Shown piece after piece: positions 13,888 to 35,987 of a stretch of 53,742 nucleotides of DNA; within the stretch, counting starts at the first letter, position 1, and each line of letters begins with the position of its first letter. The position numbers and the translations under genes were made by a program. Under the pieces are notes generated by a model, which worked only from the letters and a program-made list of their open reading frames with translations, did not search any database and had not been told where the DNA came from. The stretch is from a virus (lineage: Duplodnaviria > Caudoviricetes): the IMG/VR virus record IMGVR_UViG_3300018757_000034, positions 1 to 53,742 of that record; one strand, given 5' to 3'.

Positions 13888-13917
13888 ACTTCAATCATAG
13901 CATAGGGAGCGATGCAA

Positions 13918-14124
13918 GTGAACCGTCCAAGAGAGTTAGACATCAATCAGGATTTTTCAGTTAATAGCAAAATTCAAAGTGGGAAAGTAACTGTCATCGT
14001 TTTAGATGGCGTTAACGGTGTTGCTTACGAAGCAGAGGCGCCGGAACATGGAAAAACGATCATTGAAACAGCGAAGGGTGACTTTGCCCGAGTCGATTAT
14101 CGAATTGGTTACAAGATTAAATAG
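13918..14124 (+). CDS. XtrA/YqaO-family protein
   Basis: GKVTVIVLDG...APEHGKTIIET.KG motif; GTG 8 nt after GGGAG; synteny after RusA. Confidence 0.85.
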   Translation: MNRPRELDINQDFSVNSKIQSGKVTVIVLDGVNGVAYEAEAPEHGKTIIETAKGDFARVDYRIGYKIK

Positions 14125-14299: not shown

Positions 14300-14944
14300 T
14301 TGGATATTGTTTTTCCTATTAATGCAAAAGAAATAATAAATAAAGAAATACCCTTAAATATTCGTCGCAACTTTGTTAATTTAATACAAACTGGTTATGA
14401 CTTAGTAACACAAAGTATGAATGAGACATCTTTTTTTAAATGGGATATTGGTAAGAGGCATAGAGGTTACTTAGACCATATTGCAGTGGAATATGTTCTT
14501 TATGAAGCAGCATTAAACGGAACAGTTAATTTAAAACCTTCTGTAGTACCTAATTCTAATCGTTCGGCTTTGCATCTTGAGTTAGAAAGTCAGAATATGA
14601 AATTGACAGTAAGCCGTGTCTCAGATAAATTTAAAACCGCTAGAAATGCTAAATTTAGATCAATACTCCAAAAAAGCAATCAACTATATTGGACTGAAAC
14701 AAATGAAATAAAGGAAGAACCTGCTTATTTACAGTTAACTCATGGAAATGAAGACGGAAAATTGTCATTTGCTAATCTGGGGATACCTGATAATAAAGGT
14801 GGATGGTATGATTTTCTTGATTTAACTAAGGAGTTACATATTGTCAGGAAAAAATTACAAGAGGAAAATGAAATTAAACCTGAACAATTGGTGGGTTTTA
14901 AAAATTTTGCTCAAGGAGTGCTAAAAAGTGGAGGATCGTCTTAA
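14300..14944 (+). CDS. Hypothetical protein, putative toxin of a RosmerTA-like pair
   Basis: AT-rich; overlaps the HTH-peptidase gene. Confidence 0.6.
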   Translation: MDIVFPINAKEIINKEIPLNIRRNFVNLIQTGYDLVTQSMNETSFFKWDIGKRHRGYLDHIAVEYVLYEAALNGTVNLKPSVVPNSNRSALHLELESQNMKLTVSRVSDKFKTARNAKFRSILQKSNQLYWTETNEIKEEPAYLQLTHGNEDGKLSFANLGIPDNKGGWYDFLDLTKELHIVRKKLQEENEIKPEQLVGFKNFAQGVLKSGGSS

Positions 14945-16088
14945 ACGATTCTCGTCCATAGTTCCCGAAAGAATAAAGATGGGACGAGAAGCCAGAGGAC
15001 TAACAACCAGAGAATTCGCAGAAATGATCGGAGTTTCTCACCAAATGATATCCAAGTATGAAAAAGGTCAATCAATTCCAGGATCACAAGTTCTTGATAA
15101 AATGGTTAAGGAATTGAACCTGCCATTTAGGTTCTTTTTGAAAACTAAGAAGGCAGCAGGAGAAGACAAAACAGTTTTCTTTAGAAGTAGAGCAGTTTCT
15201 TCTGTCAAATTAAAAAAAATACATGAAATCAAACTTGAGTGGTTAAAGGAAATTCAATATTATTTAGAAGATATTCTTGATTTTCCAAAAGTGAACTTTC
15301 CTAATCTTATTAATCAAAAAAATTTTTTTCAACCAGTACATTTTGAAGAAATTGATGAACTGGCAATGACCCTGAGAAAGTTTTGGAATCTAAATGAAGG
15401 TCCGATAAGTAATCTACTTTTGTTATTGGAGAAAAACGGTGTAATAATTAGTAAAGTAAATTTTTCAGATATAAAAATCGATGCCTGTTCTGAATGGGAT
15501 GAGAATGGAAGACCCTTTATTCTTTTAGGGAATAATAAACAATCGTCATCAAGAACTCGATTCGACTTAGCACATGAATTAGGTCATTTAATTTTACACC
15601 GGTATATTAAAAAAAGTGAATTTAACAATAAACAAATATATAAAAGAATAGAGGAAGAAGCTGATCGATTTGCTTCAGCATTTCTTATGCCTAGATCTTC
15701 GTTTATTGAGGAATTTGTAGGATCTTCCTTAGACTTTTTTGTTTTAATGAAAAAGAGATGGAAAGTGTCAATTCAAGCTCTTGTTTACAGGGCATCAGAT
15801 TTGGGTTTAATATCTGATTATCAAAAGTCTTATCTATGGAGGCAAATCTCTAGTAAGGGATGGAGAAAATCAGAACCATTTGAAGAGCTTATTGTAGAGG
15901 AACCTGTAGTTCTAAAACAAGCTTTTGAATTAATAATTAATCATGAAGTGAAGAGTAAAGGACAATTAGTTGATGATTTGTCTTTAAATCGTGAGGACAT
16001 AGAGGAGTTATCTAATGTTGAAAAAGGATTTTTGTTAGAATTTAATGAAAAGCCTTTGGAAGATAATATTCTTAACTTCAAAATTTAA
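14928..16088 (+). CDS. XRE-HTH plus ImmA/IrrE Zn-peptidase fusion (RmrA-like)
   Basis: N-terminal HTH; RFDLAHELGH; EEEADRFASAFLMP. Confidence 0.9.
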   Translation: MEDRLKRFSSIVPERIKMGREARGLTTREFAEMIGVSHQMISKYEKGQSIPGSQVLDKMVKELNLPFRFFLKTKKAAGEDKTVFFRSRAVSSVKLKKIHEIKLEWLKEIQYYLEDILDFPKVNFPNLINQKNFFQPVHFEEIDELAMTLRKFWNLNEGPISNLLLLLEKNGVIISKVNFSDIKIDACSEWDENGRPFILLGNNKQSSSRTRFDLAHELGHLILHRYIKKSEFNNKQIYKRIEEEADRFASAFLMPRSSFIEEFVGSSLDFFVLMKKRWKVSIQALVYRASDLGLISDYQKSYLWRQISSKGWRKSEPFEELIVEEPVVLKQAFELIINHEVKSKGQLVDDLSLNREDIEELSNVEKGFLLEFNEKPLEDNILNFKI

Positions 16089-16090
16089 AA

Positions 16091-16156
16091 GTCCAAGACG
16101 GAGAGCCTGCGGACACTAAACCAGCGCAAAAAAGCGTTTGTTTAGTGTCTTTTTTA
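16091..16156 (+). terminator. Conserved motif copy 1 overlapping an intrinsic terminator before arpU
   Basis: GTCCAAGACGGAGAGCCTGCGGACACT; stem GACACTAAAC/GTTTAGTGTC plus T-run. Confidence 0.8.
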
Positions 16157-16175
16157 TTTTAAGGAGGGGTGGATC

Positions 16176-16559
16176 TTGTTAGCTAAACAATTGGCTTTTC
16201 TACCGCCTATAGACGAAAAAGAAGTCAGAAATACGATGATAAGGGAGCTGAAAAGGTACAAGGCTTTGAAGGTCCAGCTTGAAAACCGGAAAGAACGGGA
16301 AGCAGCTGGGATGAATAACCTTTTCCCCAAGCTCAGAGACCAGAACTCTTTAAATGAATTGAAAGTTTGTCAGATGGACAGGGCGCTTAAACAAAGCCTT
16401 GATGTTGATGAATTAAAGATTATAAAGGCCAAGTATCTCTCTTCCCAAAAAATAAAGGACATTGAGATTTATATGGAGATGGGGTTGAAAAAGGACAAAT
16501 ACTATCAGATCAAACGGCAGGCCATTTATAATCTGGCCACAGCTCTCGGGATAATATAG
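16176..16559 (+). CDS. ArpU-family late transcriptional activator
   Basis: IIKAKYLS...KDIEIYMEMGLKKDKYYQIKRQAIYNLATALG; position at the end of the early region. Confidence 0.9.
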   Translation: MLAKQLAFLPPIDEKEVRNTMIRELKRYKALKVQLENRKEREAAGMNNLFPKLRDQNSLNELKVCQMDRALKQSLDVDELKIIKAKYLSSQKIKDIEIYMEMGLKKDKYYQIKRQAIYNLATALGII

Positions 16560-16577
16560 CGTGGCTTATTTAAAAAA

Positions 16578-16695
16578 CCGCAATAGCATTTAAATTTAAT
16601 CTCCTAAAATCACCCCCACTAAATCAATGATTCTTAATCCCTTCTTAAATTGCTATTGCGGGGGTAACCGAAAATTTAATTGCGGTGGTCCGAAC
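16578..16695. promoter_or_regulatory. ComA-box-like sites upstream of rap
   Basis: CCGCAA (16578), TTGCGG (16656), TTGCGG-TGGT-CCGAAC (16680-16695) versus consensus TTGCGG-N4-CCGCAA. Confidence 0.65.
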
Positions 16696-16764
16696 GTCTT
16701 TTTCAAATGGTGGAATATTGTTAAAATTTACATCATTAGTATAGTTAAGGGAAGGGTGAAAAGG

Positions 16765-17892
16765 TTGGATAGAATCTCATCTGCAGAAGTGGGGATGAAA
16801 ATTACTGAGTGGCACCAGCATATTCAAAAATTCAATGTGACAGACGCCGAAATGCTTAAAGCTGAAATTGAAAGGGATATAGAGGTTATGGAAGAAGATC
16901 AGGATTTACTAATCTATTATCAATTGATGGCTTTCCGCCATAGTATAATGATTGAATATATAGCACCTTCAGGTGAAAAACAGATGGAATTATCAGAATA
17001 TTTAAAGAGGATTGAAGGGAATAAACGAAAATTAGATCACATGCTCACGTATTATTATAATTTTTTTCGAGGGATGTATGAATTTAGGAATGGAGAATAT
17101 ACGAAGGCAATTACTTATTATAAAAGAGCTGAACGTCAATTTCCTGCTATATCAGATTCGATTGAGAAAGCGGAATTTTACTTTAAAATGGCTGAAGTCT
17201 ACTACCATATGAAAATGACCCACGTTTCAATGTATTTTGCAGAGCGAGCATATAACATTTACAAAAAATATGAACTCTATTCTGTTCGCCTTATTCAGTG
17301 TCATTTTGTCATTGCTGGAAATTATGATGATTTAGAGAATCATGAGAAGGCTCTTCCACACCTAAATAAAGCACTTAGAGGCGCAGAACTATTAAAAAAG
17401 AAAAATCTACAGATATACGCTTCTGCTTTTTACAATCTTGGCAACTGCTATCACAAAATGGACAACTTAAACAAGGCTGCAAGATATATTGAACAAGCTC
17501 TAGTTCAATATAAAAAATTAAAATCAAAAAATTTGCCGCAAGCATACCACGACTTGGCGCTAATCAATTTCAAACAAAATAAGTATGATAAAGCCAGGGA
17601 TTATTACCGCAAAGGGCTGAGAAGTGCTGTGGAACTTAAAGATAATCTGTTTATAAGCCTTTTTGAAGCTCTCGAGTCACTTTATATAAAACGTGGTGAA
17701 ACTACATCGCTTTTTAAAATTTTCAATCGATTGGAAACAAGCAAAGGATTTCCGTATTTGGAAGAGCTGGCATTGTTAGCCGGCACCTATCTAGATTATA
17801 ATGGAAAAACAGAGGATAGTCTCATCTGTCTTAAAAAGATGGTCTATGCTCAAAAGCAAATATTGAAGGGGGAATGTTTGTATGAAGTCTAA
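16765..17892 (+). CDS. Rap-family TPR aspartate phosphatase (RapE/RapA-like)
   Basis: SAEVGMKITEW...MEEDQDLLIYYQLMAFRH; TPR repeats; likely TTG start. Confidence 0.95.
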   Translation: MDRISSAEVGMKITEWHQHIQKFNVTDAEMLKAEIERDIEVMEEDQDLLIYYQLMAFRHSIMIEYIAPSGEKQMELSEYLKRIEGNKRKLDHMLTYYYNFFRGMYEFRNGEYTKAITYYKRAERQFPAISDSIEKAEFYFKMAEVYYHMKMTHVSMYFAERAYNIYKKYELYSVRLIQCHFVIAGNYDDLENHEKALPHLNKALRGAELLKKKNLQIYASAFYNLGNCYHKMDNLNKAARYIEQALVQYKKLKSKNLPQAYHDLALINFKQNKYDKARDYYRKGLRSAVELKDNLFISLFEALESLYIKRGETTSLFKIFNRLETSKGFPYLEELALLAGTYLDYNGKTEDSLICLKKMVYAQKQILKGECLYEV

Positions 17893-18019
17893 AATGAAGA
17901 TCGGTTTAGGGATTATGATAATTGGACTTGGTTTTCTCAGTCATTTTTCGAACAACGATGATATGAACACAGCTTCAAGAAACATCACAAGCGCACCCAG
18001 TCATTATTTTGTTGTTTAA
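17882..18019 (+). CDS. Phr propeptide, PhrE-like, predicted mature peptide SRNIT; not in the ORF track
   Basis: MKSKMKIGLGIMIIGLGFLSHFSNNDDMNTASRNITSAPSHYFVV; overlaps the rap stop; PhrE carries internal SRNVT. Confidence 0.9.
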   Translation: MKSKMKIGLGIMIIGLGFLSHFSNNDDMNTASRNITSAPSHYFVV

Positions 18020-18048
18020 CTAAAAAATGAGTTTTTGGATTATCCTTT

Positions 18049-18076
18049 TAGCCGTTTTATTAGCGGCTTTTTTTTA
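18049..18076 (+). terminator. Intrinsic terminator after phr
   Basis: AGCCG...CGGCT plus T-run. Confidence 0.75.
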
Positions 18077-18222
18077 TGTATTTCAAACACTCAACAAATA
18101 GGTTTAATGACCTGATCCCAAGGATTCATTTTCACGGATTGACAGGATTTATTCACCAATTCTTTTCTATAAAGTGGTAAAATATTTCGTGGTATGTCAC
18201 TTTTGTATTAGAGGAGAATGCT

Positions 18223-19887
18223 ATGAAAACTCTTGATGTTCAGGCGTTGCACAAAGCCATTGATCAAACGCTGGAACAATTAAAACATCAATCAGACGAA
18301 TTCGCCAAAGTCAAAAAAGCCGTAGAGGGTATTACATCACTTGATGATGCTTTACAGGGAAAAGGAGGAGACGCAATTCGTGCGTTTTATAAGGAATGTC
18401 ACACCCCTTTTCTACAGTTCTATGATACTTTCATAGAGGAATACAGTTCCACGCTAAAGAAAATGAAAAGCACGTTGAATTCCCTTGAACCAAACCACAA
18501 CGGATTTATATCGCAAACCTTCCTCGAACACGAGCTGGAACAAGGGGTGAATGCAGCCGACCGCACAACGAAGCGTTTGGTATCGAAAACAAATGCCACG
18601 ATCGCAAAAGTCAGCCACATTGTCGATTTGCCCGATTTGAATGACAGCGGTTTTCATGAACAGAATCAGAAAGCCTTAAAGGAAATCAATCAGACAATTG
18701 AAAAGCTACATGCTTTTGACCGCGAACAAACAAGCGCTCTTAAAACTGCTGAACAAGACCTTGAAACGATGCAAAAATACATCACAGAGCTTGAGAAAAT
18801 GTACACAGGCCCAAAAATCGAGATCACAAGCTATAAAAAAGGCTCAATTTTAAAACCGGATGAGAATACAAACATTAACGGTCCGGTCGGCGGTCTAAAA
18901 GGAGCGTTAGAAAATGCTGAGCCTTCTCCGATGGAAATCATGCTAAAAAAATTGTCCGATCAAGAAGCATCTGAAGTCGATTCACTTACCAAAGCAGACC
19001 ATTCTAAAAAGATTGATACAGGTATTCGCATCATCAAAGGCAAAGTATATAATATGAAGGGATACAAAAAGCTCGGTTCTGTCGATGTCACCGATGAAAT
19101 CGGTACAGGCAAGGACTTCGTCGGCGGTTCGTACATGCTTTATTCAAACGGTCAAATTGTCCGAAAATACATATCCGGCGGTGAAGTGAAATACGAACTT
19201 GTCAGTCGCATACCGGAAAGCAGAGTGAAGAAAAGCAACATTGAAAAAGCTCTTGATTGGGCTAAAGACACAGTTGGAGAATTGTCCGGTGGTTATGATG
19301 GTTATAGAGCGATAACAGGTGTTGACCCTGTGACTGGTGAAAAACTATCCGTCACTGACCGTATCCTGTCCGGTGTTTCTGTCATACCCGCTACTAAAGT
19401 AGTCAAGGTAGGAAAATATGTTTTCAAAGCGAATAAAGGTGCGAAGACGGCGAAAAGGGTTTCGACCAGTACTGCTAAAAGGCCAGGGGGATATCTCAAG
19501 GAAGATGTTGATGAACATGGCTATTTAAGCCCAGGGGTTAATCGTGCACCAGGTAACAAAAATATTGCTTCTGATAATCGGGTACAGTCTCACCACCCAA
19601 TACAAAATGAATGGGCGAAAAGATGGGCTAAAGAAGGTGGATTTGATTATAACGAAAAGAAAGCATCCGCAATACTTCTCCCGTCAAGCTCTGGCCTTTC
19701 ACACGCAAAAATCTCTTCGATGCAAAGAAAGCGAAGAAAAATTGAGGGATTTAATACTGACATACGTTATGAATTTAATGTGAGTTATAGGGAAATGATT
19801 GAAGCAGGTGTTGATCAAAAAGCTACCCGAAAAGCAATGAAGGATGCATATAAATATTTCGATGGTTTGGGAGGTTTTGTAAAGTGA
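18223..19887 (+). CDS. LXG polymorphic toxin (T7SS substrate, YqcG-like N-terminus) with putative HNH-type SHH nuclease tip
   Basis: LQGKGG LXG motif; pre-toxin TG segment GYDGYRAITGVDPVTGEKLS; C-terminal QSHHPIQ...H. Confidence 0.9.
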   Translation: MKTLDVQALHKAIDQTLEQLKHQSDEFAKVKKAVEGITSLDDALQGKGGDAIRAFYKECHTPFLQFYDTFIEEYSSTLKKMKSTLNSLEPNHNGFISQTFLEHELEQGVNAADRTTKRLVSKTNATIAKVSHIVDLPDLNDSGFHEQNQKALKEINQTIEKLHAFDREQTSALKTAEQDLETMQKYITELEKMYTGPKIEITSYKKGSILKPDENTNINGPVGGLKGALENAEPSPMEIMLKKLSDQEASEVDSLTKADHSKKIDTGIRIIKGKVYNMKGYKKLGSVDVTDEIGTGKDFVGGSYMLYSNGQIVRKYISGGEVKYELVSRIPESRVKKSNIEKALDWAKDTVGELSGGYDGYRAITGVDPVTGEKLSVTDRILSGVSVIPATKVVKVGKYVFKANKGAKTAKRVSTSTAKRPGGYLKEDVDEHGYLSPGVNRAPGNKNIASDNRVQSHHPIQNEWAKRWAKEGGFDYNEKKASAILLPSSSGLSHAKISSMQRKRRKIEGFNTDIRYEFNVSYREMIEAGVDQKATRKAMKDAYKYFDGLGGFVK

Positions 19888-20540
19888 TTGATTTATCAAT
19901 GGTTTCAGATTTGATAAAAAATATTCCAGCAAGTGAAAGTGAAATTCAAGAGTCAGAAGATATTCTACAAGCTAAATTACCAAATGTATATAAGGATTTA
20001 TTAAGAAATACAAATGGTTTTTCAATTGGTGGTGAGGTGGCTATTTATGGTACAGAAGATATTGTGGAAAGAAACGAGACATGGGAAGTAGATGAATATG
20101 CAAGAGGATATGTCGCTATTGGAGATGATGGCGGAGGTAATGTTTTCTTAATGTTTCAAAATGAAAAGGAAACAGAAGTATTGATTGTTGACTCTGGGGA
20201 TATGGATCCAAGCCATGCTACTGTAATCACTTCAGATTTTATTGAATGGGTGAATAGTGGTTGTATTATAAGGGAATCGGAACAGAAAACAATAAGTGAG
20301 CCACCTGATACATGCAATATAGTGTTAGCAAAGCCCCTTGATGGAGGATTGAAAGATTTAATAAAAATAAAGAATATATTAGGTATTGAGATTTCAACAG
20401 CGGATCTACTAAAGGGTTCAAAAAATCCCCCTTATTTATTAATGGAAAGATTCCCATATGGAAAGGCAAAGAAACTAATTGAAAAATTAGGACCCATTGG
20501 TACGGTGCTGAGATTAGAGCCGATTGTCAAAGATAACTAA
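19884..20540 (+). CDS. SMI1/KNR4-family immunity protein
   Basis: PASESEI..E..L..KLP..YK..L..TNG and IGDDGGGN motifs; coupled to the toxin. Confidence 0.9.
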   Translation: MIDLSMVSDLIKNIPASESEIQESEDILQAKLPNVYKDLLRNTNGFSIGGEVAIYGTEDIVERNETWEVDEYARGYVAIGDDGGGNVFLMFQNEKETEVLIVDSGDMDPSHATVITSDFIEWVNSGCIIRESEQKTISEPPDTCNIVLAKPLDGGLKDLIKIKNILGIEISTADLLKGSKNPPYLLMERFPYGKAKKLIEKLGPIGTVLRLEPIVKDN

Positions 20541-20577
20541 TATTAACGAATTAAAGAGAAATATTGCTGAAATCACC

Positions 20578-20613
20578 AAAACCTTGATTGGCTATTGCCT
20601 TTCAAGGTTTTTT
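20578..20613 (+). terminator. Terminator after the toxin-immunity pair
   Basis: AACCTTGA...TCAAGGTT plus T-run. Confidence 0.7.
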
Positions 20614-20623
20614 ATGTTCCAAT

Positions 20624-20690
20624 CCGAGAAAAATCCGACAAAAAGGGGGATAAAATGGGGGACTTTTTCTATTCCACTTTGTCATACGAT
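20624..20690 (+). promoter_or_regulatory. Putative ArpU-activated late promoter: four 11-bp-period repeats and -10 TACGAT
   Basis: ccgagaaaaat, ccgacaaaaag, ggggataaaat, gggggactttt; no canonical -35. Confidence 0.6.
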
Positions 20691-20720
20691 AGAGACAAGA
20701 AAAACGAACGTGAATATCGA

Positions 20721-20796
20721 GTCCAAGAAGGAGAGCCTGCGGACACTGATCTTTTGCACAAGGATGTTGTGCAGCTGATTGGTGGCCGCTTTTTTA
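20721..20796 (+). terminator. Conserved motif copy 2 overlapping an intrinsic terminator in the late leader
   Basis: GTCCAAGAAGGAGAGCCTGCGGACACT (26/27 identical to copy 1); stem GCGGACACTGATC/GATTGGTGGCCGC plus T6. Confidence 0.75.
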
Positions 20797-21077
20797 TTGG
20801 CCAGAATGGGAGACGCACCTTTCCCTTATCAAGTGTGAACTCGGATGTATCGAATGATGATGAAGGTCGTCAGCTTCACAGGAGGAGCGGCTGGAGTCTA
20901 TGCAGGATTGCGCGCGATAGTCACGGGGAACGCAAGCGGTGAGATCCCGTTTGCAAAGGAAGTCATTTTTATATGGCTCCCTATAATCTTTGCGTCCTCC
21001 TGGAGATTAGCCGGAGCCATTTTTAATTCAAAAAGCGAATAGCGCAAGGTGGTGTTTATTCGATAAGGAGAATGAGT

Positions 21078-21248
21078 ATGGAGTTGAAAGATGTTTTATC
21101 AGCGAACACGAAGCAACAGCTTAAAAAAGCGTTAAGCCCTTCAACGAAGGCAGATGAACCTTTAACGAGGCGAGATTGGGAAGAGATTATGGGAATCAGG
21201 AAAGACACTTACAAACGACTAGGCGGGCGCATTCGCCGAAAACAGTAG
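21078..21248 (+). CDS. Small basic hypothetical phage protein (56 aa), not in the ORF track
   Basis: RBS AAGGAG; MELKDVLS...RRDWEEIMGIRKDTYKRLGGRIRRKQ. Confidence 0.75.
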   Translation: MELKDVLSANTKQQLKKALSPSTKADEPLTRRDWEEIMGIRKDTYKRLGGRIRRKQ

Positions 21249-21315: not shown

Positions 21316-21816
21316 GTGATATTTATGAGAGATAGTAATGAAAAAATTGAGTTTGGTAAAATCAAAACCATAGAAATATATTTGCAACGATTTCAAAAGA
21401 ACCTACATAAAAAAAGCTTAGCTGATCAGATTGCATTTAAAGATGAAATCAAAAAACGTCATGATAAAAAGGAAATTCAAATGTTCCTGGGCAGGCTGGA
21501 AGATCAGATTGAAAATAAAAAAGCTTTAAATCACTTTACTACTGCTTTTTTTGCAATTCTATCTTTTGTTTTGGGAAGTACATTGAATTATGGTCTTAAA
21601 CTTGTGACTGAGGCAGATGCAGATGTTGCTCCTACAATTATCCTTTTGGTTTTTTATGCTGCCGTAGTAATTTGGTTTGTGCTATCAGGTTGGGAATCAA
21701 GGAACCTTAAAAAGCTGAGCCTTTATAAAAGGCTATTACAAGAGTGTTTAGATGAATCACCGGAAAAAAGACATTTTAGAAGAGTACAAAAAAGTACCAG
21801 ACACCTTACTAAATAA
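21316..21816 (+). CDS. Two-TM membrane protein (moron)
   Basis: Two hydrophobic helices; AT-rich; own terminator. Confidence 0.75.
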   Translation: MIFMRDSNEKIEFGKIKTIEIYLQRFQKNLHKKSLADQIAFKDEIKKRHDKKEIQMFLGRLEDQIENKKALNHFTTAFFAILSFVLGSTLNYGLKLVTEADADVAPTIILLVFYAAVVIWFVLSGWESRNLKKLSLYKRLLQECLDESPEKRHFRRVQKSTRHLTK

Positions 21817-21827
21817 GGTGTTTTTTT
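21801..21827 (+). terminator. Intrinsic terminator
   Basis: ACACCTTA-CTAAA-TAAGGTGT plus T-run. Confidence 0.8.
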
Positions 21828-35635: not shown

Positions 35636-35838
35636 TCAAATAGAGAACTTTTGAATAGTACTATTCAAAAACGGCATTAAGTATTTTTTTCATTGTAAAT
35701 GCATAAAATAAAGAAGACCCGACTGCGGCCAACAGTCGAGTCAGATGTACAAAGTGGCCCTCAAGGGGCTGGCTCAAAATCGTCTTAAATAGACTTTCCC
35801 TTTAAACTTTTGCGGGTCTCAAGGGAAGTCTATTTTTC
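35636..35838 (+). ncRNA. Putative antisense antitoxin RNA of a type I TA locus (5' end uncertain)
   Basis: TATAAT at 35624; terminator AGACTTTCCCTT/AAGGGAAGTCT overlapping the toxin 3' end; convergent terminator at 35706-35742. Confidence 0.6.
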
Positions 35839-35907
35839 TTTCTTCGACAACACGGCAATTAACATGCCAAAAGCAATCATTAATGAGATTGTTTCGTATG
35901 TTGTCAT
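35830..35907 (-). CDS. Type I toxin peptide, BsrG/BsrH-like (25 aa), not in the ORF track
   Basis: MTTYETISLMIAFGMLIAVLSKKEK; RBS GGGGGTGA; same position as skin txpA/bsrH between tube and chaperone genes. Confidence 0.85.
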   Translation of the reverse strand: MTTYETISLMIAFGMLIAVLSKKEK

Positions 35908-35987
35908 AAGCATCACCCCCTTCCATAGGGGATGAGCCAACTTCCCTTGAGTGAGCCGAAACTTTGTACAAAGAATATTTTACCATA

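Follow-up and report, generated by a model that had tools for sequence, protein, structure and literature searches.

The window analysed here is the whole 53,742-nucleotide (nt) Caudoviricetes record IMGVR_UViG_3300018757_000034, in which one short motif, GTCCAAGAMGGAGAGCCTGCGGACACT, is found exactly at 16091–16117 and again at 20721–20747. The first copy precedes the gene of an arpU-like late transcriptional activator of 127 amino acids (aa; 16176–16559), and the second stands in a non-coding leader at the start of the late operon. Upstream of both, at 13912–14124, lies xtrA, whose 70-aa product is our proposed trans-acting antiterminator. These features, like the others of the window described below unless stated otherwise, are on the plus strand. 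XtrA matches PF17356 (PBSX_XtrA; E 1.6e-20, 73.1 bits against a cut-off of 29.7) and no other Pfam family; the activator matches phrog_248 (E 3.3e-22) and no Pfam family at E up to 0.01. The DNA between xtrA and the first copy (14300–16088) is cargo that comprises, by Pfam, a 214-aa open reading frame (ORF) and a 386-aa fusion of helix-turn-helix (HTH) and M78 domains, and copy 1 begins 3 nt past the stop codon of the latter (14928–16088). A pattern search of the whole window allowing up to three mismatches yielded no further copies of the motif, as did the covariance model R1, which recovered the two known copies across the window and no others; 100 shuffles gave no match.

Each copy can adopt two folds that draw on the same bases. 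In one, GTCC at the 5′ end of the motif pairs with GGAC near its 3′ end (stem P1) to give a hairpin at 16091–16114 in copy 1 (P1, 16091–16094 with 16111–16114) and at 20721–20744 in copy 2 (P1, 20721–20724 with 20741–20744); in copy 1 the internal part and loop are purine-rich, and the invariant block runs to 16116. The other fold is an intrinsic terminator. Terminator 1 (16111–16156) consists of a stem at 16111–16150 and a U-run and has its first 4–6 nt in common with the hairpin, and terminator 2 (20739–20795) consists of a stem at 20739–20789 and a U-run. Because GGAC opens the 5′ arm of each terminator, the 3′ strand of P1 being the first 4 nt of that arm in both copies, hairpin and terminator are mutually exclusive. 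The copies have only the 27-nt block in common and continue into two distinct long hairpins with U-runs. The description given in an earlier note on this DNA, of a motif present at these two positions, of a GTCC/GGAC pairing that excludes the terminator and of terminators that differ between the copies, is thus borne out.

The two folds are far apart in predicted stability. Taken alone, the 24-nt GTCC...GGAC hairpin folds at −4.2 (copy 1) and −6.1 kcal/mol (copy 2), no better than shuffled sequences. Terminator 1 folds at −21.8 kcal/mol (z-score −6.7) and terminator 2, as the fold of 20741–20799, at −22.7 kcal/mol (z-score −4.8), and the whole leaders reach −24.1 kcal/mol for copy 1 and −29.8 kcal/mol for copy 2 (20718–20799, stem 20739–20789). 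Overall, hairpin energies span −4.2 to −6.4 kcal/mol, compared with −21.8 to −29.8 kcal/mol for the terminators. The latter have the marks of intrinsic terminators, namely a G+C-rich hairpin, an adjoining U-run and compensatory changes in the outer helix. A simple terminator scan caught only the inner hairpin of copy 1 (16123–16138) and missed copy 2.

What follows the two terminators differs. Terminator 1 is followed by AAGGAGGGG and then by the TTG start of the activator gene at 16176, so that the ribosome-binding site of arpU lies directly 3′ of the terminator and leaves no space for a promoter of its own. Hairpin 2 is preceded by a conserved leader (20613–20720), presumed to hold a late promoter; 105 nt of it are kept in eight loci in which the DNA further upstream, including the cargo, differs, and the terminator type of copy 2 likewise recurs in eight further loci. 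No sigma-70-like site was found within 20613–20720, and the leader may hold an ArpU-dependent late promoter. Past terminator 2, the first genes are ORFs of 65 and 58 aa (20845–21248; phrog_34225 and phrog_20406), followed by a ParB-like gene, a methyltransferase gene, terS (phrog_1889) and terL.

The earlier note had listed further terminators inside the late operon, at 21801, 35988, 47827, 48779 and 49404, and had invoked lambda nut/N as one precedent for the switch. The terminator scan does list a hairpin at 21799–21823, and none of the five positions carries the motif. Every motif copy has its own overlapping terminator and the other late-operon terminators are without a motif; the logic is therefore local, as in RAT (ribonucleic antiterminator) systems, and a processive mode reaching those other terminators, as with lambda N, finds no support. 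The terminator-like hairpin at 21799–21823 lies at the end of a 166-aa ORF and overlaps the region in which the ParB-like ORF starts; the two arms (GACACC.../...GGTGT) are similar to those of the motif-linked terminators, with no motif 5′ of it.

To follow the element beyond this phage, we scanned IMG/VR with AAGANGGANAGCCTGCNNNNAC, a pattern in which the bases of the proposed stem were left free, and obtained at least 119 stretches. The motif with a variable, covarying terminator occurs in more than 100 Bacillus provirus records and in 56 of 62 XtrA-encoding genome loci, among them PBSX-type elements, PBP180 and phi105, which identifies it as a real and widespread RNA-level element and not a private duplication. 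Among the matches listed, 125 of 127 read (A)GTCCAAGACGGA[A/G]AGCCTGCGGACAC and then pass into a terminator of varying sequence. In an alignment of 127 unique elements, which we refer to as class 1, a 26-nt block is invariant or nearly so except at position 9 (C/A/T) and position 13 (A/G). The outer helix of the terminator is paired in 97.6% of the cells of this alignment, with 44 double-change cells in three pairs, a result matched by none of 500 shuffles. GGACAC, the 5′ side of that helix, is constant and its 3′ partners vary, and the fixity of these bases despite varying partners points to a second constraint on them. The outer pair of P1 in class 1 is G–C in 122 elements and G–U in three, with one double change to A–U (AUCC/GGAU) and one break. 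A search of Rfam 15, one of the checks the earlier note had called for, found no family for the element, either at the gathering score or at E up to 10.

The architecture is as constant as the sequence. The element is always on the transcribed strand and fused to a terminator, and phages with several copies repeat the whole unit. PBSX-type loci have a single copy 5′ of xpf and none 5′ of the terminase genes, with a gap of just 17–28 nt between xtrA and the motif. PBP180, a defective Bacillus pumilus phage picked up by a distant search, has the motif directly between an XtrA homologue and xpf, fused to a terminator, and xpf starts about 20 nt past the U-run. The complete genome of B. spizizenii TU-B-10 contains one copy, in a prophage, and no host gene uses the motif. 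Several single loci depart from the simple layout. In one (L027), a 251-aa ORF lies between two complete units (7728 and 8652), in another (L092), two units are 227 nt apart (6758 and 6985), and a decayed copy (L040:8153) retains a hairpin with no T-run after it. Contigs from RNA libraries (Logan, four runs) cross terminator 1, although their origin may be DNA or relatives of this phage; a further contig of an RNA library joins 20669–20747 (late leader and hairpin) through 684 other letters to 16446–18074 (the 3′ part of arpU and rap) and comes from a relative whose mosaic joint falls at the element.

In 105 instances the DNA downstream extends for 1.3 kb or more. By tblastn, 70 of these have the start of an Xpf-like gene (49) or an ArpU-like gene (21) within that distance; seven instances are of the late-leader type seen at window copy 2, and 28 are of neither type. 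The one inspected from these 28 (L022) has another, sigma-r4-like regulator, and in phi105 the regulator downstream of the motif is DUF1492. The downstream partner is thus usually a late regulator, drawn from several unrelated families (Xpf, ArpU-like, DUF1492, sigma-r4-like). This pattern supports the gating of the late activator, arpU here and xpf in PBSX-type elements, and of the 5′ leader of the late operon in this phage group.

As the downstream regulator family changes, XtrA stays constant. PF17356 is encoded in 47 of 50 motif-bearing records, the three misses being fragments (13, 13 and 59% complete), and in all 21 motif-bearing records that are at least 90% complete. In the reverse direction, 62 genome loci were retrieved by an XtrA peptide pattern alone; in 54 of them the same strand carries the motif further downstream, two more have a variant with a 1-nt insertion (56/62), and four of the six loci without it have less than 2.6 kb of downstream DNA. 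Within 5 kb 5′ of the motif, no other ORF family is as frequent as XtrA (37 of 46 loci; the next family reaches 22 of 46). Phi105 has both XtrA and the motif. Rho14, a phage of the same genus with an ArpU-like gene, lacks XtrA, DUF3954 and the class-1 motif throughout its genome; around that gene, model R1 gave nothing significant. The co-occurrence with XtrA that the earlier note had wished to see examined is therefore strong, and XtrA is the gene most consistently linked to the motif. An AlphaFold2 model of XtrA (predicted local distance difference test score, pLDDT, 82.3) is an all-beta meander of four to five strands, and a symmetric homodimer model reaches an interface score (ipSAE) of 0.50 against 0.00 for the best control, a value that 20 of 30 proteins with a structure solved as a pair of one chain attain, compared with 1 of 23 whose structure was solved as a single chain. 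Dimer runs agree in at least 96% of contacts, with a partner pLDDT of at least 66, and on these models, which bear on dimerisation and not on RNA binding, XtrA is probably a dimer.

A second class of element accompanies a second protein family. DUF3954 (PF13128), flagged as a neighbour of XtrA in a protein atlas, aligns with XtrA weakly in hhalign (E 4.7e-4, probability 32%) but with the conserved cores matched; all eight sister-class proteins compared match PF13128, and two of the eight also match PF17356. These similarities suggest that DUF3954 is a distant relative of XtrA. Downstream of DUF3954 genes we found an element of the same build but of other sequence, for example GCUUAU-CGG-AAAAA-CCG-A-GGGC-AC and then a terminator, followed by a late regulator gene and, in many cases, a small basic ORF. 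Its hairpin has a P1 of 4 bp, a P2 of 3–4 bp and an A-rich loop. Among 31 DUF3954 loci retrieved by protein alone, 27 have this class-2 element downstream, 26 detected by model R1 and one (L330) by the terminator scan; one locus without it (L336) has just 248 nt of downstream DNA. Starting from the RNA instead, 27 of 36 pattern-found candidate elements have a DUF3954 or XtrA match to a profile hidden Markov model upstream. Seven of the nine misses are evident chance matches and two (L504, L561) look real, the L561 record itself encoding DUF3954.

Class 2 provides the variation that class 1 lacks. P1 takes the forms GCUU/GGGC, GCUU/GAGC, GCCU/GGGC, GUCU/GGAC, GUCU/GGGC and UGUU/GACA, with some DUF3954 loci keeping a class-1-like GUCC/GGAC or AUCC/GGAU, and P2 the forms CGG/CCG, UCGG/CCGA, CUGG/CCAG, CUGG/CCGG, GGG/CCC, CCG/CGG and CCA/UGG. 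Covariation was counted on 23 class-2 hairpins of equal spacing (16 distinct; gapless, 22 columns, ((((.((((.....)))))))) ), and on these only, because a gapless joint alignment by MAFFT and R1 puts the class-1 P1 out of register. In this set, 93.8% of cells are paired and seven of the eight pairs are changed on both sides (16 cells); the covariation score is 0.447, compared with at most 0.153 for slid partners, and none of 500 shuffles reaches any of these measures. The sequences counted are related to each other, and the 22-nt frame was defined by the P2 core together with a 3′-strand rule; in a blind alignment, however, these rows already had no gaps and occupied the same columns. The earlier note had made its proposal depend on covariation in the GTCC/GGAC stem, and such covariation is clear in the homologous helix of the sister class.

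From the element, its distribution, its terminator, the sister-class covariation and the gene linkage, all computed here, we infer XtrA binding, the resulting read-through and a timing logic as follows. The motif would be the 5′ half of a two-state RNA switch in the early transcript. A small hairpin would form co-transcriptionally, with P1 (GUCC/GGAC) at its base, then an internal part rich in purines, and a short P2 below an A-rich loop; its 3′ strand would be the bottom of the 5′ arm of the terminator, in the pairs that adjoin the U-tract. Since the hairpin is about 16–24 kcal/mol weaker than the terminator, termination should be the default and a stabilising factor should be needed; left to itself, the terminator would win and transcription would end before the late activator gene. 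As XtrA, made from an upstream gene of the same early transcription unit, accumulates, it would bind and lock the hairpin so that the terminator base could not close. Intrinsic termination needs the base pairs that adjoin the U-run, and since these are the pairs shared with P1, locking P1 should prevent termination and let RNA polymerase continue into arpU, or into xpf in PBSX-type elements. The ribosome-binding site and start of arpU (window) or xpf (PBP180) lie within about 20 nt of the terminator, and since these genes lack the space for a separate promoter, conditional read-through appears to be required. The second copy follows the conserved 105-nt leader, which suggests that the late genes need both the activator and XtrA, an arrangement that would combine a delay timer with an AND gate.

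We are confident that the RNA switch itself is real. That XtrA is its antiterminator we regard as probable, with less assurance, on the comparative evidence: it is the most economical factor because it is early, adjoins the motif in the minimal PBSX arrangement, co-occurs with it and has a diverged relative with a matching hairpin. By a narrower balance still, we favour the wider proposal that XtrA and DUF3954 form an unrecognised superfamily of small, dimeric, sequence-specific RNA-binding antiterminators and that, together with the hairpin–terminator switch, they act as a master timer releasing late activators of the Xpf, ArpU, DUF1492 and sigma-r4 types across a broad set of Bacillus phages and phage-like elements, among them PBSX, phi105 and skin-like prophages, the protein and RNA classes having co-diverged into orthogonal pairs.

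Several observations weigh against these assignments. Within class 1, P1 is near-invariant and hence not independently proven. Co-occurrence is confounded by shared ancestry and synteny within one phage lineage, and it has exceptions: one full-length locus (L151) has XtrA with no motif within 6.2 kb, three DUF3954 loci (L326–L328) have no clear element, and L504, a complete provirus record, has an element-like hairpin and no match to PF17356 or PF13128. XtrA lies within 4 kb upstream in only 43 of 67 instances and would often have to act from a distance, which we attribute to cargo inserted between xtrA and the motif. No clear fold relative of XtrA emerged and no CAT domain was listed among its matches (Foldseek best E 3.6, VIA-align best Z 3.2), a result that does not establish a new fold. 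The identity of XtrA among these phages is 43–58% and the class-1 motif is almost invariant, a contrast that would be compatible, too, with a strongly conserved partner from the host. Position R19 (A/G) partly follows XtrA clades yet varies within identical XtrA sequences. The 1-nt insertion variant of the motif accompanies the XtrA that has diverged furthest, and phylogeny alone could account for this. The hairpin of L504 (L504:4048–4297) has GUCC...GGAC around CGG-AAGAA-CCG and lies 5′ of a sigma-like gene; the 56-aa ORF in its xtrA position has no significant similarity (hhalign probability 2.7%).

The conserved-partner reading can be taken further: the hairpin may sense a conserved host factor or a small ligand, either in the manner of a riboswitch or as the site of a factor associated with RNA polymerase or the ribosome, and XtrA may be a mere neighbouring early gene. 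The invariance of class 1 across hosts while XtrA diverges, the element-like hairpin of L504 without a recognisable XtrA or DUF3954, and the usual riboswitch pattern, in which an aptamer-like part is conserved and the expression platform varies, all speak for it. A hairpin of 22–24 nt with seven to eight pairs is, however, very small for a ligand pocket, and no Rfam family matches it. The RNA classes moreover track the protein classes, which is unexpected for a universal host partner; the whole Bacillus genome inspected has only its prophage copy; and rho14 lacks protein and class-1 motif together. We therefore consider a host factor or ligand unlikely. It is also conceivable, though quite improbable, that the element is a leaky attenuator with no dedicated factor and that the block serves RNA processing or stability or the exchange of phage modules. 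Variable cargo does adjoin the motif, often 0–9 nt past a foreign stop codon, an ORF has come to lie between the two copies of L027, and the RNA-library contig joins the element to a different 5′ part of arpU. Yet covariation keeps a hairpin that competes with the terminator, which neither a recombination site nor a plain terminator needs, the element invariably occupies the transcribed strand and is invariably joined to a terminator, and both copies in the window have intact, different terminators.

A related idea, raised as a possible refutation in the earlier note, holds that recombination at the edge of the rap/LXG cargo left the two copies behind as a scar. They do bracket arpU and a cargo of rap-phr, an LXG toxin gene and an immunity gene. 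Single copies with the same architecture, however, occur in PBSX-type elements without such cargo, the copy-2 type has its own conserved leader in the eight loci of differing upstream DNA, and the copies, alike only in the 27-nt block, keep intact and different terminators, each type conserved across several phages; we disfavour a scar as extremely improbable. Gene linkage is by contrast equally compatible with a protein that binds the motif and acts negatively, XtrA or DUF3954 keeping the 5′ strand single-stranded or stabilising the terminator while read-through comes about by another route, and TRAP and PyrR do regulate by favouring termination. But a terminator that is ahead by about 16–24 kcal/mol unaided seems to need no helper, and since xtrA shares its transcript with the early lytic genes and no second promoter serves the late activator, such a protein would block its own lytic programme. 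We judge a negative role very unlikely, and positive antitermination by XtrA remains our preferred reading.

Other candidate explanations were rejected. The majority class-1 core, CAAGACGGAAAG, is identical to positions 2050–2061 of E. coli 23S rRNA (located in rrlH), raising the idea of rRNA mimicry; the match lies at 2309–2320 of the rrlH sequence (L187), in the A2058 region, and the core of the window copies (16094–16105 in copy 1) differs from it by one or two bases. Because class-2 hairpins do not keep the sequence, the identity is probably due to chance. A PyrR-like or other known leader was dismissed on the lack of any Rfam match at E up to 10. A small-RNA seed or antisense target found no support, the longest complement elsewhere in the window being 10 nt, which is chance level (no search of host targets was made). 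A promoter was rejected because the single copy of PBSX-type elements lies 5′ of xpf and not of the terminase genes and the motif is always fused to a terminator.

The switch resembles several known systems in its way of working. The RAT RNA of Bacillus and enterobacteria is a hairpin with internal loops that is weak alone. A small, dimeric RNA-binding module of beta-sheet type (BglG, SacY, LicT) locks it, and BglG-family proteins combine this CAT RNA-binding domain with two PRD domains. As in those systems, the hairpin described here shares bases with the foot of the terminator's 5′ arm, so that only one of the two can form, and the arrangement is local, with one site per terminator. The motif sequence nevertheless differs from the RAT consensus, and XtrA has only the PF17356 domain, its 70 aa being too short for PRD domains; the element, besides, is phage-encoded and gates late activators rather than sugar operons. 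The likeness is thus one of shared logic and not of family membership: the element has no match in Rfam, in which the presence of a RAT model is itself unconfirmed. That logic, which the earlier note had named as a parallel, is supported by the overlap of hairpin and terminator in both copies and by the covariation in the sister class. Lambda N/nut, Q/qut and HK022 put likewise use antitermination to time the move from early to late transcription. In those systems RNA polymerase is modified to ignore many downstream terminators; the present element is without boxA- or boxB-like parts, and XtrA is, in its model, all-beta and not an arginine-rich peptide. HutP, GlpP, PyrR and TRAP are similar in that a small oligomeric protein chooses between a terminator and an alternative leader fold. 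They sense metabolites, use other RNA sites and have other protein folds, and no ligand is implied for the XtrA element. The layout is also riboswitch-like, with a conserved 5′ part and a variable terminator, but the structured part is just 22–24 nt and matches no Rfam class.

At the same step of the phage cycle, RinA, ArpU and LtrA–C are described as DNA-binding activators of late transcription (Quiles-Puchalt et al. 2013, PMC3753634); terS expression in the phages of that study is stated to require no phage proteins beyond the Ltr proteins (PMC3753634). The regulator genes treated in the parts of that article available to us are those under the control of the element, and these parts make no mention of an RNA hairpin 5′ of the regulator, of XtrA or of PBSX (the terms Xpf and PBSX occur 0 times). 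In the searchable literature we found no description of the motif, of a function for XtrA or of antitermination in PBSX; McDonnell et al. (1994) may describe the terminator between xtrA and xpf.

We conclude that the RNA family is new, as is the candidate family of RNA-binding proteins, and that both follow an already known regulatory principle. The RNA family is absent from Rfam 15 and is backed by covariation. XtrA, which has had a name but no known function since the sequencing of PBSX, gains a concrete candidate role, and a missing step would be added to the PBSX cascade (Xre, early operon, Xpf, late genes) and to that of phi105-like temperate phages. If the XtrA/class-1 and DUF3954/class-2 pairs are orthogonal, they could serve as compact protein-controlled terminator switches for engineering in Bacillus. 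The element also marks the early/late boundary at which cargo such as rap-phr and LXG toxin cassettes inserts, which aids the reading of prophage architecture.

The cargo of the window is itself diverse. Upstream of hairpin 1, the 214-aa ORF in 14300–16088 has no family match, and the 386-aa ORF combines HTH_3 with Peptidase_M78 (IrrE/ImmA-like). The cargo between arpU and the late leader (16627–20540) encodes a Rap phosphatase (RapH_N and TPR domains) with a 45-aa Phr-like ORF, and an LXG/PT-TG/Tox-SHH toxin with a SUKH (SMI1/KNR4) immunity gene; it has its own terminator at about 20578–20612. A family of small, very basic ORFs, represented by phrog_20406 in the window, has a C-terminal part rich in K/R and G and no Pfam match, and its members recur just 3′ of the hairpin–terminator unit in both RNA classes (window 21072–21248; L022:5802–5930; L189:2029–2268). 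Finally, the late or structural region contains, on the minus strand at 35718–35970, a full-length match to Rfam BsrG (RF01412; 156.9 bits), an RNA associated with type I toxin–antitoxin systems.

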